A DNA stretch of 64,000 nt from NCBI GenBank assembly GCA_902784855.1, contig CACZWQ010000002.1, forward strand, positions 2,547 to 66,546, given 5' to 3'. Position 1 is the stretch's first letter. Every line of letters begins with the position of its first letter. The DNA is from an uncultured Ruminococcus sp. (GTDB lineage: Bacteria > Bacillota > Clostridia > Oscillospirales > Acutalibacteraceae). The notes beneath the pieces are model-generated. The model had not been told where the DNA came from, did not search any database, and was given only the letters and a program-made list of their open reading frames with translations. Below are positions 1,129-64,000 of this stretch, piece after piece. A program made the position numbers and the translations under genes.

Positions 1129-2001
1129 TTAGAATTGGGTGATGATACCCGCGAGATAACGCTGGATCTCGGTGACGTCTCTGACGTTGATCACGCCGTC
1201 GCGGTTGGTGTCCGCGCGGTCAAGCTTGATACCGGGGGTATCGAACTCGGCGAGGTAGCGCAGCAGCATGGTCGCGTCGTCGATGGTGACCGAGCCGTTG
1301 CCGTCCACGTCGCCCGGCAGCACGCCGGGGTCAGCGCCCGAGGCGGCGGTGATGGCGGTCGTATAGGTCGCCTTTGCCTTGTTTTCGGCATTGACGGTCT
1401 TTTTCTCGATGGCGAAGTATTTCATATAGGGGAAACGCTCGTTTTCGTCGCAGAAGCTGAGGGTGTCAACGGTGCAGTTGACCTCAGTGGTGCCGGCGTT
1501 CTTGTTGAGTACCTTAAAGACAGCCTTGACCGCCGTGACGGGACCGGAGGGGTCGGCGTAGGCGTAGGCGGCGGGCTTGACCGAGGAGAAGTTGCCGATG
1601 ATCCTGCCGGCAGCTGTCTGCTTCACGGTTCCGGCGCCGAAGTTTTCCTCAGCGGCAAAGGGGAAGAAATCAATGATCTTGTTGCGTCCCACGGTGATTT
1701 GGTTGTATTCCTCTTTCCATTCGAGGACGGCGGAGTCATAGGTGAGCTCGTCGACGTCGATGTTGATCAGGGACATTTTCGGTGCGTTGAGCTTGTACTC
1801 CACGGTGACGAACATATCGCCGCTCGGGACCGTGACGGTTTCGGTTTTCGCGGCAAAGAAGTTGGATTTCGCGTTGACGGTGAAGCTTGCTCCGACGGGG
1901 TCAGCCGTTTCAGCCGCAGCAGCCGAGAAGAATGCGCACACGCTCAGAAGCATTACCGCAGCGAGAAAAACGGATAACGGTTTTTTCACGTTGAATTTCA
2001 T
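1129..2001 (-). CDS. Secreted cohesin-like domain + C-terminal dockerin protein (adaptor scaffoldin-like)
   Basis: Signal peptide ending AAAA; beta-rich domain (VNAKSNFF...VTVEY...LTYDSAVLEW...AVFKV) resembling ruminococcal cohesins; duplicated Ca-loops GDVDGNGSVTIDDAT and DTNRDGVINVRDVT. Confidence 0.75.
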   Translation of the reverse strand: MKFNVKKPLSVFLAAVMLLSVCAFFSAAAAETADPVGASFTVNAKSNFFAAKTETVTVPSGDMFVTVEYKLNAPKMSLINIDVDELTYDSAVLEWKEEYNQITVGRNKIIDFFPFAAEENFGAGTVKQTAAGRIIGNFSSVKPAAYAYADPSGPVTAVKAVFKVLNKNAGTTEVNCTVDTLSFCDENERFPYMKYFAIEKKTVNAENKAKATYTTAITAASGADPGVLPGDVDGNGSVTIDDATMLLRYLAEFDTPGIKLDRADTNRDGVINVRDVTEIQRYLAGIITQF

Positions 2002-2108: not shown

Positions 2109-2390
2109 CAACCGTGGCCACGGTTGGCAATCCGCGCGTGCGGGGGCGTGCTTGAGCGGATAAGTTTTGTTCCCGCGTTATCGCGTGGGTTTGATATTTG
2201 ACCGTTTATGCAAACGTCAGGTGCGCGGATTGGATGGAACGTCACGTTCCCGCGGATTGGATGGAACGTCACGTTCCCGCACGTTTGAGGGAGAAAAACA
2301 TTGATTCCCGCGCTCAACTTTGAACGCGGGAATAAAAGAATAATGATAAAGAAAACCTTGCACGCGCGGAGTGGATCAAACGTCACGTTT
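2109..2390. repeat. Modular palindromic repeat cluster, locus A
   Basis: CAATCCGCG at 2128 (+); its reverse complement at 2224, 2251 and 2365 (variant); CCCGCG hairpins at 2172-2189 and 2304-2333; exact 27-bp tandem duplication 2224-2277. Confidence 0.9.
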
Positions 2391-3095
2391 GTCACGTTTG
2401 CTGAGTTCTTGCAGGGTGACTTCGTAGCCTGCTTTTTCGTGGACCATCCAGGATGTTTCCGGCTCTCTGCCCAAGATCAGCTTGGCGAGATAGGCGAGAA
2501 AATGCGGGTTCTTGATCAAAACGGGACCCGTGAGGTGGGTGCCGAAAAGGTTGCGCTCGCGCAAGCCCTCGAACCTGCTGTCCGCGTTGTCGCCGAGACC
2601 CATCTGCACCTGAAAGAGGTGCTCCCTGATATCCGTCAGCTCGGTGCACTTGTTGACAAAGCCGACGAGCGGCTGCTCCAGAAAGTCGCAGGTATAGATC
2701 ACGTCGGAGGTCAGGCGGGTCTTGTTTTGAAGCTTCACATCAAAGCGGTACAGATTCATTCCCATCGTGATATCGCCGTGCCCGTCGCCGAGCTCCCTGC
2801 CGAGCATCTCAAAGGAATTGCCCGTCAGCAGCGCGACCTTGCCCGCGACGCTGACATACCTGTCGAACTCCGCGGTATGGTCGCGAAAATCCTCCAGCAC
2901 CACGCGCAGGTTCCGCTCGGTGCCCGAGCCGATGTACACAAAATCATACTGCGAGAAGTCCACCGAATCGCCGAGGGTCAGCCGGTCGACCGTCACCTGC
3001 TCGCCGCTCTTTTCGAGAATGCGCTTCATGGCGGAGACATTCGCGTAGTCGCCGTAGAGATTCATGATATCATAATAAAGATGTAACAGCTTCAT
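2376..3095 (-). CDS. gatD: Lipid II isoglutaminyl synthase, glutamine amidotransferase subunit
   Basis: CobQ-like GATase: MNLYGD.AN, YIGSG, GFVN, GTHLTGPVLIKNPH; directly downstream of murT. Confidence 0.85.
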   Translation of the reverse strand: MKLLHLYYDIMNLYGDYANVSAMKRILEKSGEQVTVDRLTLGDSVDFSQYDFVYIGSGTERNLRVVLEDFRDHTAEFDRYVSVAGKVALLTGNSFEMLGRELGDGHGDITMGMNLYRFDVKLQNKTRLTSDVIYTCDFLEQPLVGFVNKCTELTDIREHLFQVQMGLGDNADSRFEGLRERNLFGTHLTGPVLIKNPHFLAYLAKLILGREPETSWMVHEKAGYEVTLQELSKRDKRDV

Positions 3096-26471: not shown

Positions 26472-26665
26472 GAATGTAATAAGATTGTTCCGAAATGATC
26501 ATTCTTTTTGGATAATCTATTTATCAACCGGATGCTCACTCCGGGGTGCGCACCGACAGAGAGAAGAACGTGAAAAACAAAACGCGCCGGCAGCTTGCAG
26601 TCCGAAACGGCTTTCGCCCGGCGCAGAAAGCGTCCGAGGACGCACAAGGAAAGGAAGTTTTGAAC

Positions 26666-29600
26666 ATGCAAAGGAAAACCATCAGCCTTGTGCTGTGCCT
26701 GACCTTGCTGGTCTCGATGATCGCATTCGCGGTTCCCTCCGCGAGCGCCGCGACCGTCGATTCCGCATCGGCAGGCTACAGCCGTATCGAAAGTGCAGAC
26801 GATTTCTCTTGGGACAACGTCAACATGTACTTTCTCTTGACCGACCGTTTTTATAACGGAAACACCTCGAACGACCACGCCTACGGACGTGCCTGCGACG
26901 CGAACGGTCAGCCGCTTGCGGGCTGGCAGAGCAATCCCGGCACCTTCCACGGCGGCGACTTCGCGGGTCTGACACAGAAGATCAACGAGGGCTACTTCAA
27001 TGACATGGGCGTCAACGCCATCTGGATCTCCGCTCCCTATGAGCAGATCCACGGCTATGTCACCCCCGGCGACCCCAACGATTTCTCCCACTACTCCTAC
27101 CACGGCTACTACACGCTCGACTACACCGAGACCGACGCCAACTTCGGCACCAAGGCGGAGTTTAAGACAATGGTCGACGCCGCGCACGCGCACGGCATCC
27201 GCGTCGTCATGGACGTCGTCATGAACCACGCCGGCTACAACACCATCAAGGACATGCTCGAATACAACTTCGGCTCCTTCAAGGATCAGGCGGCGGCGAC
27301 CTCTTACCTCTACAAGCTCACGGGCGTCAACGACCTGCACAGTACCGTCGACTATAAAAACTCCGAGGAGTCTTGGGGACGTTGGTGGAGCAACGACTGG
27401 ATCCGCAGCGGTCTGCCCGGCTATGAGGAGGGCAGCGGCGAAGTGACCGGTTGCGTAGCGGGTCTGCCCGACTTCCGCACCGAATCCACCAAGCAGGTCT
27501 CCATCCCGCCCATCCTGAAAACCAAGTGGCAGAAGGAAGGCACCTATAACCAAAAGGTCGCCAAATACGGCAGCTCCGGCACGGTTTCGGATTACCTGAC
27601 CACATGGCTCGCCGAGTGGGTCGAGACCTACGGCGTCGACGGCTTCCGCTGCGACACCGCCAAGCACGTAGAGCTTGGCTCCTGGAAAAAGCTCAAAAAC
27701 AAGTGCGTCGCCGCGCTCAAAACGTGGAGACAGAACAATCCCACCGCAGACGGCGCCGACTGGGACGAGGACTTCTGGATGACGGGCGAATGCTGGGGCT
27801 ATAAAAGCGGCTACGGTTCCTACTACTCCGACGGCGGCTTTGACTCCATGATCAGCTTCTCCATCACCGGCAACGTTTCGGCGAATCCCGGCGGTCTCGG
27901 CGGCCCCGAGTCCATCGACGGCATGTATTCCTCCTACGCCGCCGATATCAACACGAATCCCGACTACAACCTGCTCTCTTACCTCTCCTCGCACGACACG
28001 GGTCTGGTGCGTCAGAATTCCTACTGGCAGGGCACGGCGTTCCAGCTTTTGCCCGGCGGCATCCAGATCTTCTACGGCGATGAGACCGCGCGTCCTCTGC
28101 TGACCAACGTCCCTGTCGGCGGCGACGGCCACGCGGTCAGAAGCGATATGAACTGGGGACAGAACGCCGACCTGCGCACCCACTGGGCGAAAGTCGGCAA
28201 ATTCCGCGCAAACCATGTTGCGGTCGGCGCGGGCGCGCATCAGCTCATCTCCTCCTACAGCTCCTCGACGGGCTACACCTTCGCGCGCACCTATCTGGAC
28301 GATAATGTCACCGACGGCGTCATCTGCTGCATCGGTGCACCCGTGAACCAGCAGATCGCGGTCGACGTTTCCTCCATGTGGGGCAACGGCAAGACCGTCA
28401 CCAACGAATACGACGGCACCACTGCGGTGGTCACCAACGGCAAGGCGACCTTTAACTCCGGCGCACAGGGCGTCATCCTGATCTCGGGCCCGCAGTCCAC
28501 GATCGCCATGTCCCTCACCGGCAAGCCCGCGTTCTACGATCAGGAAGAAGTCTCCCTCAAGCTGCGCGGCGCAGACTATGCGATGGTCTCCGTCGACGGC
28601 GGCACACCGTTCCGCGTAACGGACGGTCAGGTGTTCTCCATCGGCAATGATATTGCTGTCGGCACGGTGTTTGAAGTCGTCGTCACCGCCACCAACGCGA
28701 CCGAGACCGTCGAAAAGACCTTCAAGTTCAAGAAGAAGGATCCCGACGCGGTCACCCGCATCTACTTCGATAACTCCTCCTACAACTGGTCAAAGGTCAA
28801 CGCCTATGTCTACGACGACTCCGGCGCCGAGGTCGTGGAAAACGGCGCCTGGCCCGGCAGTGAGATGACATATGACAGCGAAAAAGGTCTGTATGTCTAT
28901 GAGGTCGATGAAGACTTGGCAGACACCGGCGCGGTCGTGTTCAACAACGGCACCGACCAGTATCCCCCCAAGGGCGTCAGACTGGACATCAACGGCAGCG
29001 ACAAGATCCTGATCCAAAAAACCGTGTGGAAGGAATATGAGGGCGAGATCGTCCAGCCCACCGATCCGCCTGCACCCGGCACCCAGCGCACCATCTACCT
29101 CGACGCGGGCAAGTTCAACGCCGGTTCTCCCAAATGTTATGTTTGGATCAAGGGTACCAAGACCGATCTTGACCCATGGCCCGGCACCACGATGGTTGCG
29201 GCTCCCGAAATGGGCGCGAACTTCTATAAGCTGACCTGCGACGCAAAATATAACTGCTGCATCTTCACCAACAACGGCGGCGGTCTCTGCGGGGATCAGG
29301 ATATCCCGTACCTCAAGGCGATGTACGACGGCACATGGCACGAGGTAAAGGATTCCGATCCCTCCGATCCTACCGACCCGACCAATCCCACCGGACCCAT
29401 TTTCGGCAGACGGATCCTGATCGGCGACAGCGACCTCAACGACAGGGTGGACATCAAGGATGTCACCGCCATTCAGCGTCATCTGGCAGATCTCGGCACA
29501 TTGACCGGCGACGCGCTGATCGCGGCGGACGTCGACGTCAGCAAAAACGTCACCATCTTGGACGGCACGCTGATCCAGATGTACCTCGTGGAGATCGACA

Positions 29601-30298
29601 GGGACGACAACCACACGGGCGAGCTTGTCTATGTCGAGGATCCCACCGACCCGACCGAGCCCACCGAACCGACCAATCCCACACAGCCTGCGGGTCAGAG
29701 AACCATCTATCTCGACGGCGCAAAGTTCGGCACCACCACTCCCTATGTGTATGTGTGGAAGAAGGGACAAACGGAGAACATGGGCGCTTTCCCGGGCAAA
29801 CCGATGACAGCTGTCGGCAACGGCATCTACAGCTACACCTGCCCCGAGGAATACAACTGCTGCATATTCAGCAAGGACGGCGGCGACAAAAGCAAGATCA
29901 GCGGCGATCTTGATATCCCCTACACAAGCGCACTGTATAACGGAAGCTGGAGTCAGTACAGCGGCTCGAACGACCCGACGACACCCACCACACCGCCCGA
30001 CCCGGCAAATTCGGTCACGCTGGTCAACGGCAGCTTCGTTGATCCGCAGAAGGGTCAGGATTGGTACGCGTGGACATGGAACAATGACTCGGACGGCAGA
30101 TGGATTTCCGGCACGGGCGACGCGAACGCGTATGTCTTTACCGGCGAATTCGGCGCCAAGATCCTCTTTGTCAGAGTCCCTGTGGGAGAGGATCCCAGCT
30201 GGAATCCCAGAAACATCTACAACCAGACGCCCGACTTAGACACCAAGCTCGGCGGCACCTATGTCATCGACCACTGGTACGGCGGCAACTGGCAATAA
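26666..30298 (+). CDS. Secreted GH13 alpha-amylase with starch-binding (CBM26-like) modules and an internal dockerin (amylosome-type)
   Basis: Signal peptide; GFRCDTAKH, TGECW and SSHDT catalytic motifs; repeated RIYFD/RTIYLD...YVW modules; PT linkers; dockerin GDSDLNDRVDIKDVT...DVDVSKNVTILDGT. Start ATG 26666. Confidence 0.9.
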   Translation: MQRKTISLVLCLTLLVSMIAFAVPSASAATVDSASAGYSRIESADDFSWDNVNMYFLLTDRFYNGNTSNDHAYGRACDANGQPLAGWQSNPGTFHGGDFAGLTQKINEGYFNDMGVNAIWISAPYEQIHGYVTPGDPNDFSHYSYHGYYTLDYTETDANFGTKAEFKTMVDAAHAHGIRVVMDVVMNHAGYNTIKDMLEYNFGSFKDQAAATSYLYKLTGVNDLHSTVDYKNSEESWGRWWSNDWIRSGLPGYEEGSGEVTGCVAGLPDFRTESTKQVSIPPILKTKWQKEGTYNQKVAKYGSSGTVSDYLTTWLAEWVETYGVDGFRCDTAKHVELGSWKKLKNKCVAALKTWRQNNPTADGADWDEDFWMTGECWGYKSGYGSYYSDGGFDSMISFSITGNVSANPGGLGGPESIDGMYSSYAADINTNPDYNLLSYLSSHDTGLVRQNSYWQGTAFQLLPGGIQIFYGDETARPLLTNVPVGGDGHAVRSDMNWGQNADLRTHWAKVGKFRANHVAVGAGAHQLISSYSSSTGYTFARTYLDDNVTDGVICCIGAPVNQQIAVDVSSMWGNGKTVTNEYDGTTAVVTNGKATFNSGAQGVILISGPQSTIAMSLTGKPAFYDQEEVSLKLRGADYAMVSVDGGTPFRVTDGQVFSIGNDIAVGTVFEVVVTATNATETVEKTFKFKKKDPDAVTRIYFDNSSYNWSKVNAYVYDDSGAEVVENGAWPGSEMTYDSEKGLYVYEVDEDLADTGAVVFNNGTDQYPPKGVRLDINGSDKILIQKTVWKEYEGEIVQPTDPPAPGTQRTIYLDAGKFNAGSPKCYVWIKGTKTDLDPWPGTTMVAAPEMGANFYKLTCDAKYNCCIFTNNGGGLCGDQDIPYLKAMYDGTWHEVKDSDPSDPTDPTNPTGPIFGRRILIGDSDLNDRVDIKDVTAIQRHLADLGTLTGDALIAADVDVSKNVTILDGTLIQMYLVEIDRDDNHTGELVYVEDPTDPTEPTEPTNPTQPAGQRTIYLDGAKFGTTTPYVYVWKKGQTENMGAFPGKPMTAVGNGIYSYTCPEEYNCCIFSKDGGDKSKISGDLDIPYTSALYNGSWSQYSGSNDPTTPTTPPDPANSVTLVNGSFVDPQKGQDWYAWTWNNDSDGRWISGTGDANAYVFTGEFGAKILFVRVPVGEDPSWNPRNIYNQTPDLDTKLGGTYVIDHWYGGNWQ

Positions 30299-30344: not shown

Positions 30345-30359
30345 TTATTATCGCCGAGG

Positions 30360-30553
30360 GAAACGTGACGTTCCATCCAATCCGCGAGTGAAAAGATTAT
30401 AGAAATAATAACCTTTATAGCCCACGTTATAACGCCCGCGTGTCGCGGGAGCCAATCCGCGAGTGAAAAGATTATAGAAATAATAACCTTTATAGCCCGC
30501 GCTATAACGCAGGCATGACGGTTACCGTCCAAACAAACTTTGCACGCGTGGGT
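30360..30553. repeat. Modular palindromic repeat cluster, locus B
   Basis: CAATCCGCG at 30378 and 30453, each preceded by a hairpin and followed after 34 nt by CCC(A/G)CG-N6-CGC; 59-bp near-exact direct repeat with a 75-bp period. Confidence 0.9.
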
Positions 30554-30640
30554 AAAGCGCCCACCGGCGTAAATGACGCTTGCGTTTGCGTTGAATCTGT
30601 ATTATAATAGATAATGGAGTTTTATAAGGAGAGGTGTCCT

Positions 30641-47011: not shown

Positions 47012-47230
47012 CCCGCGTGTCGCGGGAGCCAATCCGCGCGGGCAGCAGACGTTTGCAAAAAAGGTCAGAATAACAGCCCGCGCTATAACGCGGGAACGTG
47101 ACGTTCCATCCAATCCGCGCCTGAGAGGGTTGTTTGGGCGGTGACCTTTAAAATCCCGCGCTATAACGCGGGCATTAATGGCAACTGTCCAAGCAAACGT
47201 CGCACGCGTGGAGAAAGCGCCCTTGGGCGC
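47012..47230. repeat. Modular palindromic repeat cluster, locus C
   Basis: CAATCCGCG at 47030 and 47111; CCCGCGCTATAACGCGGG at 47077 and 47155; hairpins CCCGCG-tgt-CGCGGG and GGAACG-tga-CGTTCC. Confidence 0.9.
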
Positions 47231-47304: not shown

Positions 47305-48258
47305 ATGAAACGAATACTTGCAGCCATCCTGACCATTCTCCTCATCGGCGCCGCCGGCATTGTATCCGCCTCCGCCGAGGGTTTTGAGGATATATACGGC
47401 GTGGGCGACGTCGATCTCGACGGACGGATCTCGATCAACGACGCGACCCTGATGCAGCGCTTCCTTGCGCAGATGAACAATCCTACAACAGCGCAGTTGG
47501 CACGCTTGGATGCGGACTGCGACGGCGTTTTCTCCATCAACGACGCGACCCATTTGCAGCGCGTTCTCGCCGAGAGCTATCAGTCTCTCGTCGGCAAAAA
47601 AGGGATCGACATCTCCTCTCACAACGATTCCGTCGACATGGCGGCGGTCAAGGCGGCGGGCTTTGATTTTGTGATGATCCGCTGCGGCTACGGCAAGGAC
47701 GATCCCTTTCAAGATGATACCTGCTTTGTTGAGAACGTGAAAAAATGCGAGGAAATCGGCATGCCGTGGGGCGTCTATCTGTTCTCCTACGCGGTCAGCG
47801 AGCAGGAAGCCTACAGCGAGGTCGAGCACGTCGACCGTCTGTTGAAGGCGGAGAAGGAAAAGGGCTATCTGCCGACGCTGCCCATCGTTCTCGATGTGGA
47901 GTGGACAAACTACCACGAGGTCAACAACGCGTGGAACGCGGAGAACATCAACGCGGTCACCACCATCTTTATCGATGAGATCGTGAAGCGCGGCTATTAT
48001 CCGATGATCTATACGGGCTACAGCGTGCTGGAGGACTTCTTCTCCGATCATCTGCGCAACGACGTCGACTGCTGGTTTGCGCAGTGGTATCTCTCGCCGG
48101 ACGCTTATTACTACAACTGTCTCGGTATCTGGCAGTACGGCGGTGAGGAGAATTATCTGGAGTCGCCCGAGATCGAGGGCGTCGGTGTAGTGGATATGAA
48201 CTATGTCTACCGCGATTACCCCCTCATCATCAAAAACCGACACTACAACGGCTTCTAA
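47305..48258 (+). CDS. Secreted dockerin + GH25 muramidase (lysozyme)
   Basis: Signal peptide; dockerin GDVDLDGRISINDAT...DADCDGVFSINDAT; GH25 KGIDISSHN, IRCGYG, LDVE, W.AQW, GIWQY, VDMN. Confidence 0.87.
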   Translation: MKRILAAILTILLIGAAGIVSASAEGFEDIYGVGDVDLDGRISINDATLMQRFLAQMNNPTTAQLARLDADCDGVFSINDATHLQRVLAESYQSLVGKKGIDISSHNDSVDMAAVKAAGFDFVMIRCGYGKDDPFQDDTCFVENVKKCEEIGMPWGVYLFSYAVSEQEAYSEVEHVDRLLKAEKEKGYLPTLPIVLDVEWTNYHEVNNAWNAENINAVTTIFIDEIVKRGYYPMIYTGYSVLEDFFSDHLRNDVDCWFAQWYLSPDAYYYNCLGIWQYGGEENYLESPEIEGVGVVDMNYVYRDYPLIIKNRHYNGF

Positions 48259-48259
48259 A

Positions 48260-48284
48260 CCGTTGCCGCGGAGGGCAGTGCGCC
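48260..48284 (+). repeat. Degenerate unit of the same repeat family (locus F) at the GH25 stop codon
   Basis: CCGT-TGCC-GCGG-AGGGCAGTGCGC aligns with CCGT-TGCC-ACGG-GAGGGCAATCCGC at 59410. Confidence 0.5.
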
Positions 48285-48439
48285 TTTTGAAAAGTCGGAT
48301 CGTCGGCGAAGTCGGATGAACGGCGCGCCAAGTTGTGTGCTTGGAACGAAAACGTTGGCTGCTCTCTGTCAAAACGCATTGGAAACGATGCGTGATAACG
48401 CGGAAATTGACAAAAGTGGGTTTTTTTGGCATTTTTGTA

Positions 48440-48513: not shown

Positions 48514-48600
48514 GCCACACAATGGGCAAACCTGTCGAAAGGCAGGGGCGCAAAGCCAAGGTGTCTGCAGCGTCATCGGACGTATGATTGACCGGCCGCA
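48514..48600 (+). ncRNA. c-di-GMP-I (GEMM) riboswitch
   Basis: GGGCAAACC-TGTC-GAAA-GGCA-GGGGCGCAAAGCC...GACCGGCCGC follows the GEMM-I consensus, including the GNRA tetraloop and G at the position equivalent to G20 (c-di-GMP rather than cGAMP type). Confidence 0.9.
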
Positions 48601-48627
48601 ACGTTTTTTCGTCGCGGCCGTTTTTTT
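48593..48627 (+). terminator. Riboswitch expression-platform terminator
   Basis: CGGCCGC...GCGGCCG stem plus T7; its 5' arm is the 3' end of the aptamer. Confidence 0.8.
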
Positions 48628-48717: not shown

Positions 48718-50865
48718 ATGAAAAAAGTTATGATTGCGGTGTGTGTGATCGTCGCGCTCGTGATTCTGGCGGACGCCGCATATTTTCGCCTCGGGTGGTA
48801 TATCGACCTCAACCCGTCGGCGCCCGTGACCGCCTTTGTCAAGACGGACGGCAAGCGGATCATGATGGATCGCGGCGACGGCTTCGAGCCCTTTGAGATC
48901 AAGGGCGTCGACCTCGGCTCGGGCAAGCCCGGAGAATGGGCAAGCGCCTACGCCGTCGACGGCGATACCTATCTTCGCTGGTTCCGCGAGATCAAAGAGA
49001 TGGGCGCCAACACCATCCGCGTCTATTCCGTCGGGCAGGACGTGTTTTATCGCGCGCTGTACGAATTCAACGAAAACAACCCCGATCCCTTGTGGCTGCT
49101 GCAGGGGGTATGGATCGACGACGAGGTGCAGCGTTCCGTGCGCGACGCCTATGACCCCGCATTCTGCGAGGACTTTCTCAAAGAATGCCGCGTGATGCTC
49201 GATGTGATACACGGTGCGCGCAAGCTTTCTCCCGGCAGAAGGACGGGCGGCTCGGGCGCCTATCGCCGGGACGTCTCGCGCTGGGTGATCGGCTACATCC
49301 TCGGCGTGGAGTGGGAGGGCGCCACGGTCGCCTTTACCGACGAGAAGTACGCGCAGGACAGCGGGCGTAACCGCTACTGCGGCGAATATCTCTGCACCGG
49401 TGCGCAGGCGACGCCCTTTGAGTCAATGCTCGCGCGCGTCGGCGACGGGGTCATCTCCTACGAATCCGCGCGTTACAAGACGCAAAAGCCACTCGCCTTT
49501 TCCAACAGCCCCGCCACCGACCCCTTCGACTATCCGCAGGAAACGGCTTCCTTTTTTGCAAAGCAGGGCAAGGTGGATGTCGGGCACATCCTCACGACCG
49601 ACGCCTGTATCGCGGGGCAATTCGCCTCCTATCACGTCTACCCTTACTATCCCGACTATCTCAGCCGGATCGACGATTGGTCGCGCTTCGGCATCGCCGA
49701 CCGCGCCGCCTTCACCCTTGACGGCAGAGAGAATACCTACCGCGCCTATCTGACCATGCTCAACGCCCATCATACCATCCCCGTCGTCATTTCGGAGTTC
49801 GGCGTTCCGTCGGGCAGGGGCATGGCGCAGTGTGAGGCAGGGCTCGGGCGCAACCAGGGGAACATGAGCGAACGCGAACAGGGCGACGCGCTGCTGAGGT
49901 GCTGTGAGGACATCAAGGCGGCAGGCTGTGCGGGCTGCTGTGTGTTCTCATGGCAGGACGAGTGGTTCCGAAGCAGCTGGAACACGAAATTCGCGGTCGA
50001 CCCCGACCGCACGCCCTACTGGTCGGATTACCAGACCGCCGCGCAGTCTTTCGGCTTGCTCGCGTTTGACCCGGGAGAGACGACCTCCGTCTGTTATCCG
50101 GACGGCGACGTCTCCGAGTGGGGCGAGAAGGACGCGGTGTGCGAAAACGGCGGCATGACCCTCTCGATGAAGTACGACGAAAAATACATCTATTTCCGCG
50201 TCAGCCGCAAGGGGCTCGACCTAAGGCGCGGAAAAATCTATATCCCGATCGACCTTACGCCCGAAAGCGGCAGCAGCTGCTGTCAAAACGACGGACTTCT
50301 GTTTGACCGCGCGGCGGATTTTCTGATCGTCCTCGACGGCAGAGACAACAGCCGCGTGCTGGTGCAGGAGCGCAGTGAAGCGCTGCGCGTCGCCGATCCC
50401 GTCAACGGCGGCGTCCCCGATAAGGACTCGCCGCGCTTTGTGAACATCAATATGCTGCTGCAAAACGGGACGCGCACGCAAGCCGCCGAGACCTTTGAGA
50501 CGGGAAAGCTGACCTACGGCAACGCAAACCCGGAAAGCCCGGCATTCGATTCCAAGGCGGACTTTTTCGCGGACAGCGACAACGTAGAGCTCCGTCTGCC
50601 GTGGCAGCTGCTCAACTTCTCCGACCCGTCGCGCATGCGCATCCGCGGCGACTGTGACGGTGCCGACGGCGTTTCGACCGTTGCCGTCGAACAGCTGTGG
50701 GCGGGTGTTTCCGACGGCAGTGACAAGAAAAGGATCGCGCTCGGGACGTTCCCGCTTCGCGGCTGGGGCGACCGCCCCACCTTTCATGAGAGACTGAAAA
50801 GCGCCTACTATGCGCTGCAGGGCATCTGGCGCCTTAACCCGACAAGCACGGAGGTGAACGGATGA
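48718..50865 (+). CDS. Membrane-anchored/exported clan GH-A-like glycoside hydrolase
   Basis: N-terminal TM; FEIKGVDLG, IKEMGANTIRVY, YILGVEW (putative acid/base), VVISEFG (putative nucleophile), FSWQDEW. Confidence 0.7.
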   Translation: MKKVMIAVCVIVALVILADAAYFRLGWYIDLNPSAPVTAFVKTDGKRIMMDRGDGFEPFEIKGVDLGSGKPGEWASAYAVDGDTYLRWFREIKEMGANTIRVYSVGQDVFYRALYEFNENNPDPLWLLQGVWIDDEVQRSVRDAYDPAFCEDFLKECRVMLDVIHGARKLSPGRRTGGSGAYRRDVSRWVIGYILGVEWEGATVAFTDEKYAQDSGRNRYCGEYLCTGAQATPFESMLARVGDGVISYESARYKTQKPLAFSNSPATDPFDYPQETASFFAKQGKVDVGHILTTDACIAGQFASYHVYPYYPDYLSRIDDWSRFGIADRAAFTLDGRENTYRAYLTMLNAHHTIPVVISEFGVPSGRGMAQCEAGLGRNQGNMSEREQGDALLRCCEDIKAAGCAGCCVFSWQDEWFRSSWNTKFAVDPDRTPYWSDYQTAAQSFGLLAFDPGETTSVCYPDGDVSEWGEKDAVCENGGMTLSMKYDEKYIYFRVSRKGLDLRRGKIYIPIDLTPESGSSCCQNDGLLFDRAADFLIVLDGRDNSRVLVQERSEALRVADPVNGGVPDKDSPRFVNINMLLQNGTRTQAAETFETGKLTYGNANPESPAFDSKADFFADSDNVELRLPWQLLNFSDPSRMRIRGDCDGADGVSTVAVEQLWAGVSDGSDKKRIALGTFPLRGWGDRPTFHERLKSAYYALQGIWRLNPTSTEVNG

Positions 50866-58507: not shown

Positions 58508-59383
58508 ATGAAAGGAATATTCAAAAAAGCCGCAGCGGTGCTGCTGGCGGTTGTGCTGGTGTGCAGCCTCGCGGCGGTCATTCCCGCGTCGGCGGCGGAA
58601 AAGCCCTTTGTGCTGCATGTGAAATCCAACCTGTTTCCCGATCGGGATTTCACCTATTCCAACCTGTCGTGCTTAGCGGACGACAACGGCGATGTGTTCC
58701 TCACGGTCGATTTTGACATGCTCGCGGCACAGCAGTATCTGATCAATCTGGACATCGGTTCCCTGACATGGGACACCGACGTGCTCGAATTCAAGCAGGC
58801 GTACAACACATACGGCACGGGCAGAAACGCGCGCTTTGTGCTGTTCCCGTTTGCGTATGAGCAGGGGCTCGGCACCGGCATCGTCAACACCTTCGGCGAC
58901 AACAACGGCGGCAGGCTCGTCGGCAACTACACAAGCGTCAGTCCTGCGGCGTATGCCTATGAGGAGGACGGCTCGGCGGTCACGGTCGTGCGCGCCACCT
59001 TCAAGGTGATCGACAGCGCGGCAGCTTCGGCTGAGATCGAGCTGACCATGCGCGAGATGTCCCTCTGCGATGACGACGTCGAGGAGCCGTATTCCCAGAG
59101 AAAGCCCGTCGAGCATGGTGAGATGCAGCCGGATGTCTGCGCGCAGCTGACTCTTTCCACCGGCATTACCCCCATCAATGCGGGCGATGTGGACGGCGAC
59201 GGCAAGGTCACCATCAACGACGCGACTGCTTTGCAGGGCTTCCTTGCGGAGATGAACAGCAATATCGACTGGACAGACCCCAAGGTATTGGCACAGGCGG
59301 ATGCGAACCACGACGGCAGAGTCGACGTCAGGGACGTCACCGAGATCCAGCGCTATCTCGCAAACATCACCACAAATCTCTAA
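58508..59383 (+). CDS. Secreted cohesin-like + dockerin protein, paralog of 1129-2001
   Basis: Signal peptide; shared motifs KSN.F, LIN.D...LT.D..VLE, GRN...FPFA.E, SV.PAAYAY, A.FKV; dockerin GDVDGDGKVTINDAT...DANHDGRVDVRDVT. Confidence 0.75.
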   Translation: MKGIFKKAAAVLLAVVLVCSLAAVIPASAAEKPFVLHVKSNLFPDRDFTYSNLSCLADDNGDVFLTVDFDMLAAQQYLINLDIGSLTWDTDVLEFKQAYNTYGTGRNARFVLFPFAYEQGLGTGIVNTFGDNNGGRLVGNYTSVSPAAYAYEEDGSAVTVVRATFKVIDSAAASAEIELTMREMSLCDDDVEEPYSQRKPVEHGEMQPDVCAQLTLSTGITPINAGDVDGDGKVTINDATALQGFLAEMNSNIDWTDPKVLAQADANHDGRVDVRDVTEIQRYLANITTNL

Positions 59384-59564
59384 CCGGTGCCCCGGTGGGT
59401 AATCCGCGCCCGTTGCCACGGGAGGGCAATCCGCGCGTGCAACGTTTGTAAAATAGGTTAGAACAATAGCCCGCGTTCGAACGCGGCAGCGTGACGCTGC
59501 ACCCAGTCCGCGCAACAGATGTTTGTAATAAAGGTAAAATAATAGCCCGCGCTATAACGCGGGC
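59383..59564. repeat. Modular palindromic repeat cluster, locus D
   Basis: TAATCCGCG (59400), CAATCCGCG (59427) and CAGTCCGCG (59504), each after a different hairpin; CCCGCG-N6-CGCGG hairpins at 59470 and 59546. Confidence 0.9.
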
Positions 59565-59591
59565 ATTATTTTTACCGAATAATCAAACTTT

Positions 59592-60140
59592 TCACTCGCG
59601 GATTGGGTCGAGCGTCACGCTCGCGCGGGTGGAGATGGTGATGAGGCTCATGCCCTCCGGCTGCGCGGGCAGGCGTTCCATGATACGCAGCAGCAGCAGC
59701 TCCGCCCAGCTGCGGGCATTTTCCGCCTTGAGCAGATCGATGCGGATCTCCTCCTCCCGAAGCAGCGCGGCGGCGTTGCCGGTGCACAGCAGGAACGCGT
59801 CGCCCTGTATGATATCCGACTCGCGGCGCTGCGACAGGGGCAGCGCTTCGCCGTTCCGGAAACGAAGGAGCTTCATATCTCCGATGCAGCGCCAAGCGGC
59901 TTTTTTGCCCGCCAGCGCCAGTGCGGCGATCGATTTTTCCCCGATCATTTGGGAAAACAGCGTGTCAAAGCGGTCGGCGAGTGTGCCGCCCGCATTATCC
60001 CAGCGGGCGGTCAGGGTCTCGGCAATACAATCGCAGTCCTCGTCGCGGACGACGAGCAGCAGGTCGCTGTCATCCTCCGCGCGGGTGCCGACGGCGCTTT
60101 TGCCGTCGCGGTGTGTAAAGGAAAATACGTCGGGTATCAT
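59592..60140 (-). CDS. Degenerate PP2C/PPM-fold protein (probable pseudophosphatase)
   Basis: CIGDMKL.RFRNGE and GDAFLLCTG echo PPM motifs, but the DG and DN metal ligands are absent. Confidence 0.55.
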   Translation of the reverse strand: MIPDVFSFTHRDGKSAVGTRAEDDSDLLLVVRDEDCDCIAETLTARWDNAGGTLADRFDTLFSQMIGEKSIAALALAGKKAAWRCIGDMKLLRFRNGEALPLSQRRESDIIQGDAFLLCTGNAAALLREEEIRIDLLKAENARSWAELLLLRIMERLPAQPEGMSLITISTRASVTLDPIRE

Positions 60141-63213: not shown

Positions 63214-63301
63214 AAGCACAATCTCCTTTTCTCTTTTGACCTTATTTTAGCATTTTCTTCCACAAAAAGCAACCATTCAGCGCAAAATTCTAGAGAAACT
63301 A

Positions 63302-63618
63302 CTGCTGTAGCAGCAATCCGCGCGTGAGAGGTTGGTAAGGACGACAAAATTCAAGCCCGCGTTCGGGTGCGGGATATAACAATGGCGCAGCCAATTCATG
63401 CCGCAGGTAATTCATGGCGCAGCCATTTCATGCCCGAAGGGCAATTCATTCGGCGTTTGTAATAAAGGCAAAAATTATAGCCCACGTTATAACGCGGGCT
63501 ATAAAGGTTATTGCTATATTTAACTTTTCACGCGCGGATCGGCTCCCGCGACACGCGGGCGCGGGCTATAGTGGTGATTGCTTTATTAAACGCTTCACTC
63601 GCGGACTGCTGCTACAGC
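63302..63618. repeat. Modular palindromic repeat cluster, locus E, bounded by 24-bp terminal inverted repeats
   Basis: 63304-63327 and 63595-63618 are inverted at 22/24; core motifs at 63314, 63533 and 63600; hairpins at 63356, 63481 and 63545; internal AATTCAT repeats. Confidence 0.9.
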
Positions 63619-64000
63619 CGTAGAGTAGGCGTGGAAAAAGACTCTGGCTTTGTCCGGGGTGCCTACGCCGTAGTATTGGCATTCGTTCTCGGCGGTCTCG
63701 CCCGGCTCGATGACGCCGTTTTCATCGGCGCAGGTTTCCTCGCTGACGTGGGTCAGCTTGCCGTCGCTGTAGAACAGCGCAAGGTACTTGTTGTTCATCG
63801 AAACGCGCTCTCCCTTGTTCTCGGCGCTGACCTTGACCGAGGTGGGGGTCAGGCTGAAATCGACCGCGATATCCTTGTCGATGGGCTGGAAGTCCTCGAC
63901 CGGGACGAACTCCTCGATCTTGTACTCAAACGAGGAATACTGCCCGTTGCTGGTGAAATCGAGATAGACGGTGGTGCCGTCCTCGACGGCGATGGCGTTG
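63595..64000 (-). CDS. Hypothetical exported-type protein, 5' part outside window
   Basis: Frame open from 63999 (NAIAVEDGTTVYLDF...YLALFYSDGKL...IEPGET) to TGA 63595; codon usage like neighbouring genes. Confidence 0.7.
   Translation of the reverse strand, partial: NAIAVEDGTTVYLDFTSNGQYSSFEYKIEEFVPVEDFQPIDKDIAVDFSLTPTSVKVSAENKGERVSMNNKYLALFYSDGKLTHVSEETCADENGVIEPGETAENECQYYGVGTPDKARVFFHAYSTAVAAVRE

Follow-up and report, generated by a model that had tools for sequence, protein, structure and literature searches.

A REP/BIME-like mosaic repeat family with a new tag and fixed geometry in Ruminococcus-like bacteria of the rumen and gut

Introduction

What are the short palindromic modules that recur, chained or inverted, along a contig of an uncultured Ruminococcus species, and by what means have they spread? 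Most of what is known about REP-type repeats and their enzymes comes from the Proteobacteria and Cyanobacteria. The DNA considered here, hereafter the window, is a stretch of 64,000 nucleotides (contig C2:2547-66546) within a 2.05-Mb draft genome of 143 contigs that has a G+C content of 57 % and is 94 % complete, with 3.4 % contamination; its related records are MAGs from the rumen, labelled "uncultured Clostridiales RUGxxx" or "Ruminococcus sp.". An initial annotation of the window had described five loci and a remnant of a modular palindromic family, had likened it to REP/REPIN or BIME elements, probably mobilized by a RAYT encoded elsewhere, and had put it forward as an undescribed system. 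It had also suggested a genome-wide search for the spaced pattern, a covariance model, a search for a RAYT or Y1 gene flanked by copies, and a comparison of empty and filled sites. The family is notable for a different tag, interchangeable hairpins and strict spacing, all within a large genus of starch-degrading Clostridia of the rumen and gut.

Architecture of the repeats

The five loci and the remnant all lie in the window where they had first been placed, and the modules are indeed either chained head-to-tail or inverted around a shared hairpin (Table 1). A head consists of a 15-nt hairpin, of which there are about eight types, a 3-nt spacer and the core CAATCCGCG. A body consists of two half-units, each made up of core, arm and CCCGCG, inverted around one hairpin. 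Within the clusters of the window there are 15 cores with at most one mismatch, and the core-to-hairpin distance is 33-35 nt in 10 cases and 38 nt in one; cores 2365(-) and 63600(-), additional to these measured cases, stand by eye 34 nt from their hairpins. The count agrees with the earlier tally of 12. The hairpin CCCGCG-N6-CGCGGG, with at most one mismatch, occurs nine times in the window against an expectation of 1.2, a number reached by none of 100 shuffles. With one mismatch allowed, the bare 9-mer core shows no enrichment in the window (30 found, 39 expected), and the signal there is the exact core together with its spacing rather than the 9-mer by itself.

Table 1. Repeat modules in the window, with positions counted from its first nucleotide
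Feature	Position	Strand	Modules
Cluster 1	2109..2391	.	Modules listed in the three rows below
Cluster 1, left			Head CAACCGTGGCCACGGTTG 2109-2126; core 2128-2136; 35-nt arm; hairpin 2172-2189; 34-nt arm
Cluster 1, middle			Inverted core 2224-2232 and head GGAACGTCACGTTCC; second 27-nt tandem core and head 2251-2277
Cluster 1, right			Core-less arm; long-loop hairpin 2307-2330; 34-nt arm; inverted core 2365-2373; head CAAACGTCACGTTTG 2377-2391
Cluster 2	30359..30569	+	75-nt head-to-tail units 30364-30438 and 30439-30513; 34-nt arms identical, heads different (GGAAACGTGACGTTCC vs CCCGCGTGTCGCGGG)
Cluster 2, right end			Hairpin 30496-13; inverted arm; degenerate core CGTGGGTAAA; head GCGCCCACCGGCG
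Cluster 3	47012..47230	+	Head CCCGCGTGTCGCGGG; core 47030-38; 38-nt arm; hairpin 47077-94
Cluster 3, continued			Head GGAACGTGACGTTCC 47093-107, with GG in common with hairpin 47077-94; core 47111-19; 35-nt arm; hairpin 47155-72
Cluster 3, end			Inverted arm; degenerate core CGTGGAGAAA; head GCGCCCTTGGGCGC
Remnant	48258..48285	+	Solo head of CCGTTGCC(A)CGG type; AGGG; degenerate core CAGTGCGCC
Cluster 4	59384..59625	.	Two heads of CCGN-TGCC-NCGG type; cores 59400-08 and 59427-35; 34-nt arm; hairpin 59470-87
Cluster 4, complete element	59486-59623		Head GCAGCGTGACGCTGC; core CAGTCCGCG; 33-nt arm; hairpin 59546-63
Cluster 4, far half of element			33-nt arm; inverted core 59597-605; head CGAGCGTCACGCTCG
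Cluster 5	63299..63623	.	Head CTACTGCTGTAGCAG; core 63314-22; 33-nt arm; hairpin 63356-73
Cluster 5, middle			Mini-hairpin array; core-less arm; hairpin 63481-98; 34-nt arm; inverted core 63533-41; head CCCGCGACACGCGGG
Cluster 5, end			Half hairpin; 34-nt arm; inverted core 63600-08; head CTGCTACAGCCGTAG
Mini-hairpin array	63384..63452	+	GGC-GCA-GCC, GCC-GCA-GGT, GGC-GCA-GCC, GCCC-GAA-GGGC; each followed by AATTCAT or ATTTCAT

Across the genome, 139 heads are perfect hairpins of 6 bp with a 3-nt loop, located 3 nt from the core and falling into discrete stem types: GGAACGTGACGTTCC (37 heads), CGAGCGTGACGCTCG (25), CCCGCGTGTCGCGGG (22), CCCGCGTGCCGCGGG (16), GCAGCGTGACGCTGC (14) and CAAGCGTGACGCTTG (8). 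Heads of other geometry include CTACGGCTGTAGCAG, CCGTTGCCACGG followed by GAGGG, and GCGCCCAAGGGCGC with the variant tag TTTCTCCGCG. Between types, both sides of all six stem pairs have changed; since the rows compared were preselected for pairing, only the variety of pair types counts in this test. Heads also occur in tandem, with a period of 27 nt in this genome and 25 nt in relatives.

The 36 complete bodies found genome-wide are 102-106 nt long (mode 104). Among 121 half-units of the genome, the linker is 34 nt in 87, 33 nt in 26, 35 nt in five, 36 nt in two and 32 nt in one. The linkers had been thought to keep their length while varying in sequence: the constancy of length stands (33-34 nt in 113 of 121), whereas the sequence is not free, as the 121 half-units share a moderate consensus, CgTGaaAcGTTtGt..gaAcGGT.Acc.Ttaaa. 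The central CCCGCG hairpin hardly varies at all. Folded as single-stranded DNA, the element at 59486-59623 reaches -45.8 kcal/mol (z = -9.8). The idea that the body is maintained as one long hairpin was nonetheless rejected, since complementarity between the two arms of one body (0.571) does not exceed that between arms of different bodies (0.601), with 4941 of 5000 permutations at least as high as the within-body value; a long hairpin can form, but it is not the conserved feature. What is conserved in bodies is the spacing and a set of conserved blocks. The fixed spacing fits a putative reader that measures distance, as does the absence of any extra complementarity between arms of one body.

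Census and distribution across the genus

The whole genome contains 144 exact cores, where 22 would be expected, and in 79 of them CCCRCG lies 33-35 nt further on. The spaced core-to-hairpin pattern gives 80 matches and the reversed control pattern none, so that the spacing seen in the window holds at the scale of the genome. The repeats form about 97 clusters totalling approximately 12 kb, and the most frequent 16-mers of the genome, at 35-45 copies each, all derive from the family; near-identical copies are few. As 19 of the 97 are no more than 300 nt from the end of a contig, the true number of clusters is probably higher. Some pairs of contigs in the bin (C43:9606-12734 vs C88:1-3120 and eight others) match each other at 88-95 % identity over stretches of 0.3-3.1 kb, which suggests admixture of a second, related strain or species. 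No clusters were found on these pairs, at about 90 % identity, within the bin.

The exact head pattern, present 61 times in this genome, recurs within the genus in 13 of 200 other species, whereas 397 genomes from other genera of the family gave no match. The covariance model, built from head and half-unit, detects the repeats in 59 of 151 genomes of the genus, with at least 31 matches in seven genomes and 10-24 in about nine more. At loci of other species, the stem stands 33 nt from the core in 44 and 34 nt in 18 of 128 cores, and the linkers differ. Half-units in relatives, along with the covariance-model matches, rule out a body confined to one species. Among the genomes compared, the family is restricted to one large genus of Ruminococcus-like bacteria of the rumen and gut. 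The spacing is borne out both genome-wide and between species, and the description of a modular palindromic family of REP/BIME-like type is upheld.

Plasmid and phage collections gave no matches. Of ten head matches in viral contigs, one is a true half-unit; the other nine, like a match in Ureibacillus, lie in a single gene that by eye looks conserved and coding. The nine viral contigs and one Ureibacillus contig (L112-L115, L117-L121, L017) carry an identical 23-nt head-like string there, which was rejected as a true head.

One explanation of this geometry is a duplex platform on which a DNA-binding protein of the host, perhaps gyrase, a nucleoid protein or a factor like IHF, contacts core and palindrome at a fixed distance, much as the BIMEs of Escherichia coli bind IHF and gyrase. 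Such a platform would suit a core-to-hairpin distance that stays at 33-34 nt across species despite the divergence of linkers, arms that need not pair, and half-sites inverted around a centre. However, head stems that change on both sides and stay paired are a better fit to a folded strand, no candidate protein was found, and the spread of the repeats to new sites would go unexplained. We consider this explanation very improbable.

Genomic position, insertion and module exchange

The repeats lie largely outside genes, with 87 % of cluster bases beyond the rough gene calls. Gaps between convergent genes hold 30 % of clusters and make up 13.6 % of all gaps; a further 18 % of clusters lie between divergent genes. 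About one-third of the distances between gene end and cluster are at most 30 nt from the stop codon, in 17 cases the stop codon is inside the cluster, and in four more the cluster begins right at the stop. Several bodies have the order A-tract, GC hairpin, T-tract and resemble intrinsic terminators.

The window illustrates this closeness to gene ends. The last head of cluster 1 overlaps the stop of a GATase_3 gene at 2376-3095(-), the remnant begins at the stop codon of a GH25-dockerin gene, and the last unit of cluster 5 overlaps the stop of a gene starting at 63595(-). In cluster 4, the inverted core plus AGTGA provides the last codons and the TGA stop of the gene at 59592-60140(-); core plus AGTGA terminates two genes of the window with ...RE*. 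The genes flanking the repeats encode dockerin proteins, a CBM26 starch-binding protein, a GatD-like amidotransferase, ZapA, a GH25 lysozyme and FHA proteins. None is a nuclease or transposase, and the earlier view that no neighbouring gene accounts for the repeats is maintained. Dockerin-bearing proteins and the CBM26 protein adjoin four of the five clusters (1129-2001(-), 47305-48258(+), 58508-59383(+) and 26546-30298(+)), neighbours that fit an amylosome-type organism. Exact-protein look-ups of two flanking genes found no records, and a metagenome scan gave a single relative at 47 % identity.

Comparison of orthologous sites, as had been proposed, revealed that clusters present here are absent from relatives. 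In relative G557 (L096), the terminator-to-promoter gap orthologous to that of cluster 2 has no such cluster. An operon junction that is about 15 nt long in RUG230 is occupied here, at C54:9978, by some 300 nt of repeat modules, among which a head provides the codons LLL and a stop. These clusters are insertions. Neither a target-site duplication nor an excision product was seen; with flanking DNA only 70-89 % identical to that of the relatives compared, no target duplication is readable.

Beyond insertion, the modules have been exchanged among loci. Two loci have in common a stretch of 188 nt that is 94 % identical, with identical left arms and different left heads, and the two 75-nt units of cluster 2 are distinguished by their heads alone. 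Among all pairs, the probability of sharing a head is 0.14-0.15 at any arm identity below 0.9, and three of seven pairs above 0.9 share one. The assortment of heads is thus independent of that of arms. Both the spacer and the base at core position 3 (A/G) travel with the head, which places the joint within TCCGCG. Further junctions also fall after CGCG, for example from hairpin to head at 47093. In practical terms, the repeats break assemblies and alter the 3' ends of genes, and they could serve as strain markers.

Relation to known repeat families

The closest likeness is to the REP, BIME and REPIN-RAYT systems of Enterobacteria and Pseudomonas. In both, short, GC-rich extragenic palindromes carry an unpaired conserved tag, form inverted doublets and mosaics with conserved linkers, supply the most abundant 16-mers of the genome, and lie downstream of genes and between convergent genes. 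As in REPINs, extragenic palindromes and inverted doublets are present at high copy number (139 heads, 36 bodies, 87 % extragenic), and as in BIMEs, the alternating units are separated by linkers of fixed length (33-34 nt in 113 of 121), a likeness of build with no relationship of sequence. The differences are equally clear. The tag here is CGCGGATTG/CAATCCGCG, of 9 nt, rather than GTAG, and about eight stems are interchangeable on it. The GTAG (GT[AG]G) tag of REPINs sits at the 5' foot, whereas CAATCCGCG lies on the 3' side of the hairpin, 3 nt away; GTAG itself is confined to the stem of the CTACGGCTGTAG head. Finally, the host belongs to the Clostridia, its genome contains neither a single-copy RAYT nor one flanked by its own REPs, and the RAYT-like genes of relatives are unflanked.

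What defines a REP superfamily is its unpaired tag, GTAG or CGTC (PMC3733652), and the tag here is neither. In the CGTC-tagged superfamily, a terminal unpaired CGTC/TGTC accompanies stems of 8-9 bp and loops of 4-5 nt (PMC3733652). The family described here resembles the CGTC-tagged repeats (Di Nocera, De Gregorio and Rocco 2013) in its lack of a dedicated transposase, its dimers and clusters, and the intragenic location of some units. It departs from them in its 6-7-bp stems, 1-3-nt loops and other tag, and the CGTCACG that it does contain is inside the hairpin rather than terminal.

Among Firmicutes, the BOX elements of Streptococcus pneumoniae are likewise modular (A-Bn-C), with a variable tandem module and about 100 copies per 2-Mb genome and no known transposase. 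The comparison is one of build and of Firmicute host; in the present family the module in tandem comprises a hairpin and its tag, 27 nt in all, and an inverted doublet makes up the body. As regards derivation from an IS as a MITE, inverted ends exist; no multicopy IS, Y1 or IS110 accompanies them, TnpB matches are weak, and a Y2 search gave nothing, with its control also silent. DNA-uptake sequences, CRISPR and attC sites were set aside by reasoning alone, given how densely the copies occur and that neither spacers nor cassette arrays are present. In the window, the only Rfam match at gathering score is a c-di-GMP-I riboswitch at 48515-48603 (+) (57 bits vs a gathering score of 35), upstream of the gene at 48718, and none covers heads or bodies at E values up to 5. 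A literature search found no paper on the head and body.

As to the notion of an undescribed system, no Rfam family or paper found covers head and body, but repeats of the REP/BIME kind are already known. This is a real REP/BIME-like mosaic family, restricted to one genus, with a new tag, fixed geometry and free exchange of modules.

The search for a mobilizing enzyme

Mobilization by a RAYT encoded elsewhere, as first supposed, finds no support in this genome. The profiles Y1_Tnp and REP_Tyr_transpos (PF01797, NF047646) have no matches in the 94 % complete draft, and tblastn with the RAYT-like proteins of relatives gave no match beyond a 29-residue IS200 remnant. IS110 and multicopy IS are likewise without matches in this genome, and TnpB is represented only by weak zinc-ribbon matches in long ORFs. 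A Y2 search of the genome returned nothing, as did its control, and with the control silent that result carries little weight. With the genome 94 % complete and in 143 contigs, a RAYT may lie on a missing contig.

Relatives do encode RAYT-like proteins, in frames of 154-236 aa that represent three paralogues at the argJ|argB, argH|argC and gltX-like|glnS junctions. In this genome the argJ|argB, argH|argC and gltX|glnS junctions are intact, empty and 35-110 nt long. Six RAYT-like loci (L089-L094) of four relatives (G509, G557, G598 and G462) contain no head or true core within about 1.3 kb; a RAYT or Y1 gene flanked by copies was thus found neither here nor in relatives. The RAYT-like genes score 63-75 bits against NF047646, below its 80-bit NCBIfam cut-off, and resemble RAYT group 1 / subclass 2.1, the group found in Clostridia, which is reported not to be associated with REPs (PMC5581495, PMC6006769). 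They occur in 108 of 200 genomes of the genus, in 63 of 98 genomes with either repeat family vs 18 of 50 others (p = 0.0016, kinship uncontrolled), and in 12 of 16 high-copy genomes; this genome, the highest in copies, has none. The genus-wide association of repeats and RAYT-like genes is loose and confounded by relatedness. A copy-richest genome that lacks a Y1 transposase would represent either an orphan population left after loss of the enzyme or another route of spread.

The former is the reading that we tentatively favour: a non-coding, DNA-level mosaic of the REP/BIME kind, spread as folded strands by a Y1 HUH (RAYT-like) enzyme that has since been lost. Its unit is a short hairpin with the unpaired tag CAATCCGCG; heads, 34-nt arms and the central CCCGCG hairpin are joined at CCGCG-type junctions, and the modules would have spread, and been shuffled, in the form of folded single strands. 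A hairpin-recognizing, cleave-and-join enzyme would have been responsible, most likely a Y1 HUH (RAYT-like) transposase that acted in trans at the tag, and disappearance of its gene from this genome would have left the orphan repeats. This reading is favoured by the over-represented core with its fixed spacing, the discrete head types whose stems stay paired, the exchange of modules, the filled sites that are empty in relatives, the confinement to one genus, the RAYT-like genes of most high-copy genomes and the unbiased orientation of the asymmetric arrays. Against it stand the missing Y1 gene, the unflanked, low-scoring RAYT-like genes of relatives, a tag other than GTAG, the failure to see target duplications or excision products, and the scarcity of near-identical copies.

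The same mosaic could also have been built without a Y1 enzyme, by another recombinase or nuclease at the CCGCG junctions or by host processes at the 9-13-nt cores and hairpins, i.e. replication template switching at hairpins, gene conversion, and slippage yielding the 27-nt head arrays. Such an origin would agree with the richest genome having no Y1, TnpB or IS110 match or multicopy IS (and nothing from the Y2 search, with its silent control), with RAYT-like genes that are unflanked by repeats, with module exchange that breaks at the conserved core, and with tandem head arrays (27 nt here, 25 nt in relatives). The CGTC-tagged REPs, too, are without a dedicated transposase (PMC3733652). Yet host recombination alone leaves insertion into new sites, such as the operon junction, unexplained, no candidate for the alternative enzyme was found, and RAYT-like genes are enriched among repeat-bearing genomes. 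We judge this origin rather unlikely, albeit the strongest competitor of a lost Y1 enzyme.

Mini-hairpin arrays and the Gut-1 motif

Nineteen arrays of mini-hairpins, mostly of four units, occur in the genome, always 3' of a half-unit; the mini-hairpins have loops of the C-GNA-G type and are linked by AATTCAT. They recall Gut-1, a motif reported from human-gut metagenomes only and judged an RNA by its authors (Weinberg et al. 2010, PMC2864571). Like Gut-1, the arrays are tandem small hairpins of varied sequence with a constant 7-nt linker, GUGAAAU in Gut-1 and AUGAAUU here; they differ in having shorter stems, in being welded to the CAATCCGCG half-unit and in scoring only 21-24 bits. The array of the window gives 23.2 bits against Rfam Gut-1 (RF01706), on the minus strand, and the best scores of this genome are 23.9, 23.2 and 21.2 bits, all below the gathering score of 50. 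Gut-1 at or above that score (50-89 bits; e.g. L104 1501-1577) is found in 32 of 151 genomes of the genus, at up to 20 copies each, and frequently as two inverted arrays. The genomes with many copies of Gut-1 and those with many copies of CAATCCGCG are mostly of different species. The repeat family gives a 16-year-old orphan motif a place in named genomes, in which the motif behaves as a dispersed repeat of many copies. At two of the loci (L105, L106; ~1395-1580), Gut-1 adjoins what by eye looks like a tRNA gene.

The three designs (hairpin with CAATCCGCG, hairpin with AATTCAT, and the Gut-1 hairpin with GTGAAAT) might belong to one system, whose enzyme would read hairpin shape together with tag sequence. 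Such an enzyme would not be a classical REP-flanked RAYT; it would cut and join at the tag, shuffling modules with fixed spacing. We regard a common system as unlikely; were it true, the orphan 'Gut-1 RNA' would be a module of mobile DNA and not a small-RNA gene.

The arrays also bear on a role in RNA, according to which the repeats are selected as 3'-UTR stabilizers, bidirectional terminators or protein-sponging arrays of the Gut-1 type, with the tags as protein-binding sites. That role would suit the many clusters within about 30 nt of a stop codon, the enrichment between convergent genes, the terminator-like bodies (A-tract, GC hairpin, T-tract) and the resemblance of the arrays to a motif judged an RNA by its authors; that many REPs work as RNA has been argued by Di Nocera et al. 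(PMC3733652). Against it, the asymmetric arrays of this genome have no bias of orientation relative to flanking genes, 18 % of clusters lie between divergent genes, the arms of the body do not covary and its central hairpin hardly varies, and presence or absence between species, along with the shuffling of modules, indicates dynamics at the level of DNA. Selection for a role in RNA thus seems decidedly unlikely as the account of the family, and a DNA-level mosaic remains the reading that we prefer.

No Avd-like small gene lies beside any of the 19 arrays in this genome. Most AATTCAT arrays are followed by TCTTGGCAGAAC.TTTCCG, which we take to bear a loose resemblance to a sigma-54 -24/-12 promoter. 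Examples outside the window are at C24:14527-14575, C7:3316-3340 and C37:18773-18800 and on C5, C77 and C126, and a long palindrome, TGTCATYCTGAGCGG...CCGCTCAGRATGACA, is frequently found after the array and TCTTGGCAGAAC.TTTCCG. In Oscillospiraceae bin.37 (L011, L022, L075), the head CCAGCGTGACGCTGGACC and CAATCCGCG precede another conserved sequence, some 100 nt long (GGGCGCTCCTTCCAGTCGCGGAAGG...), which may be another element that shares that head.
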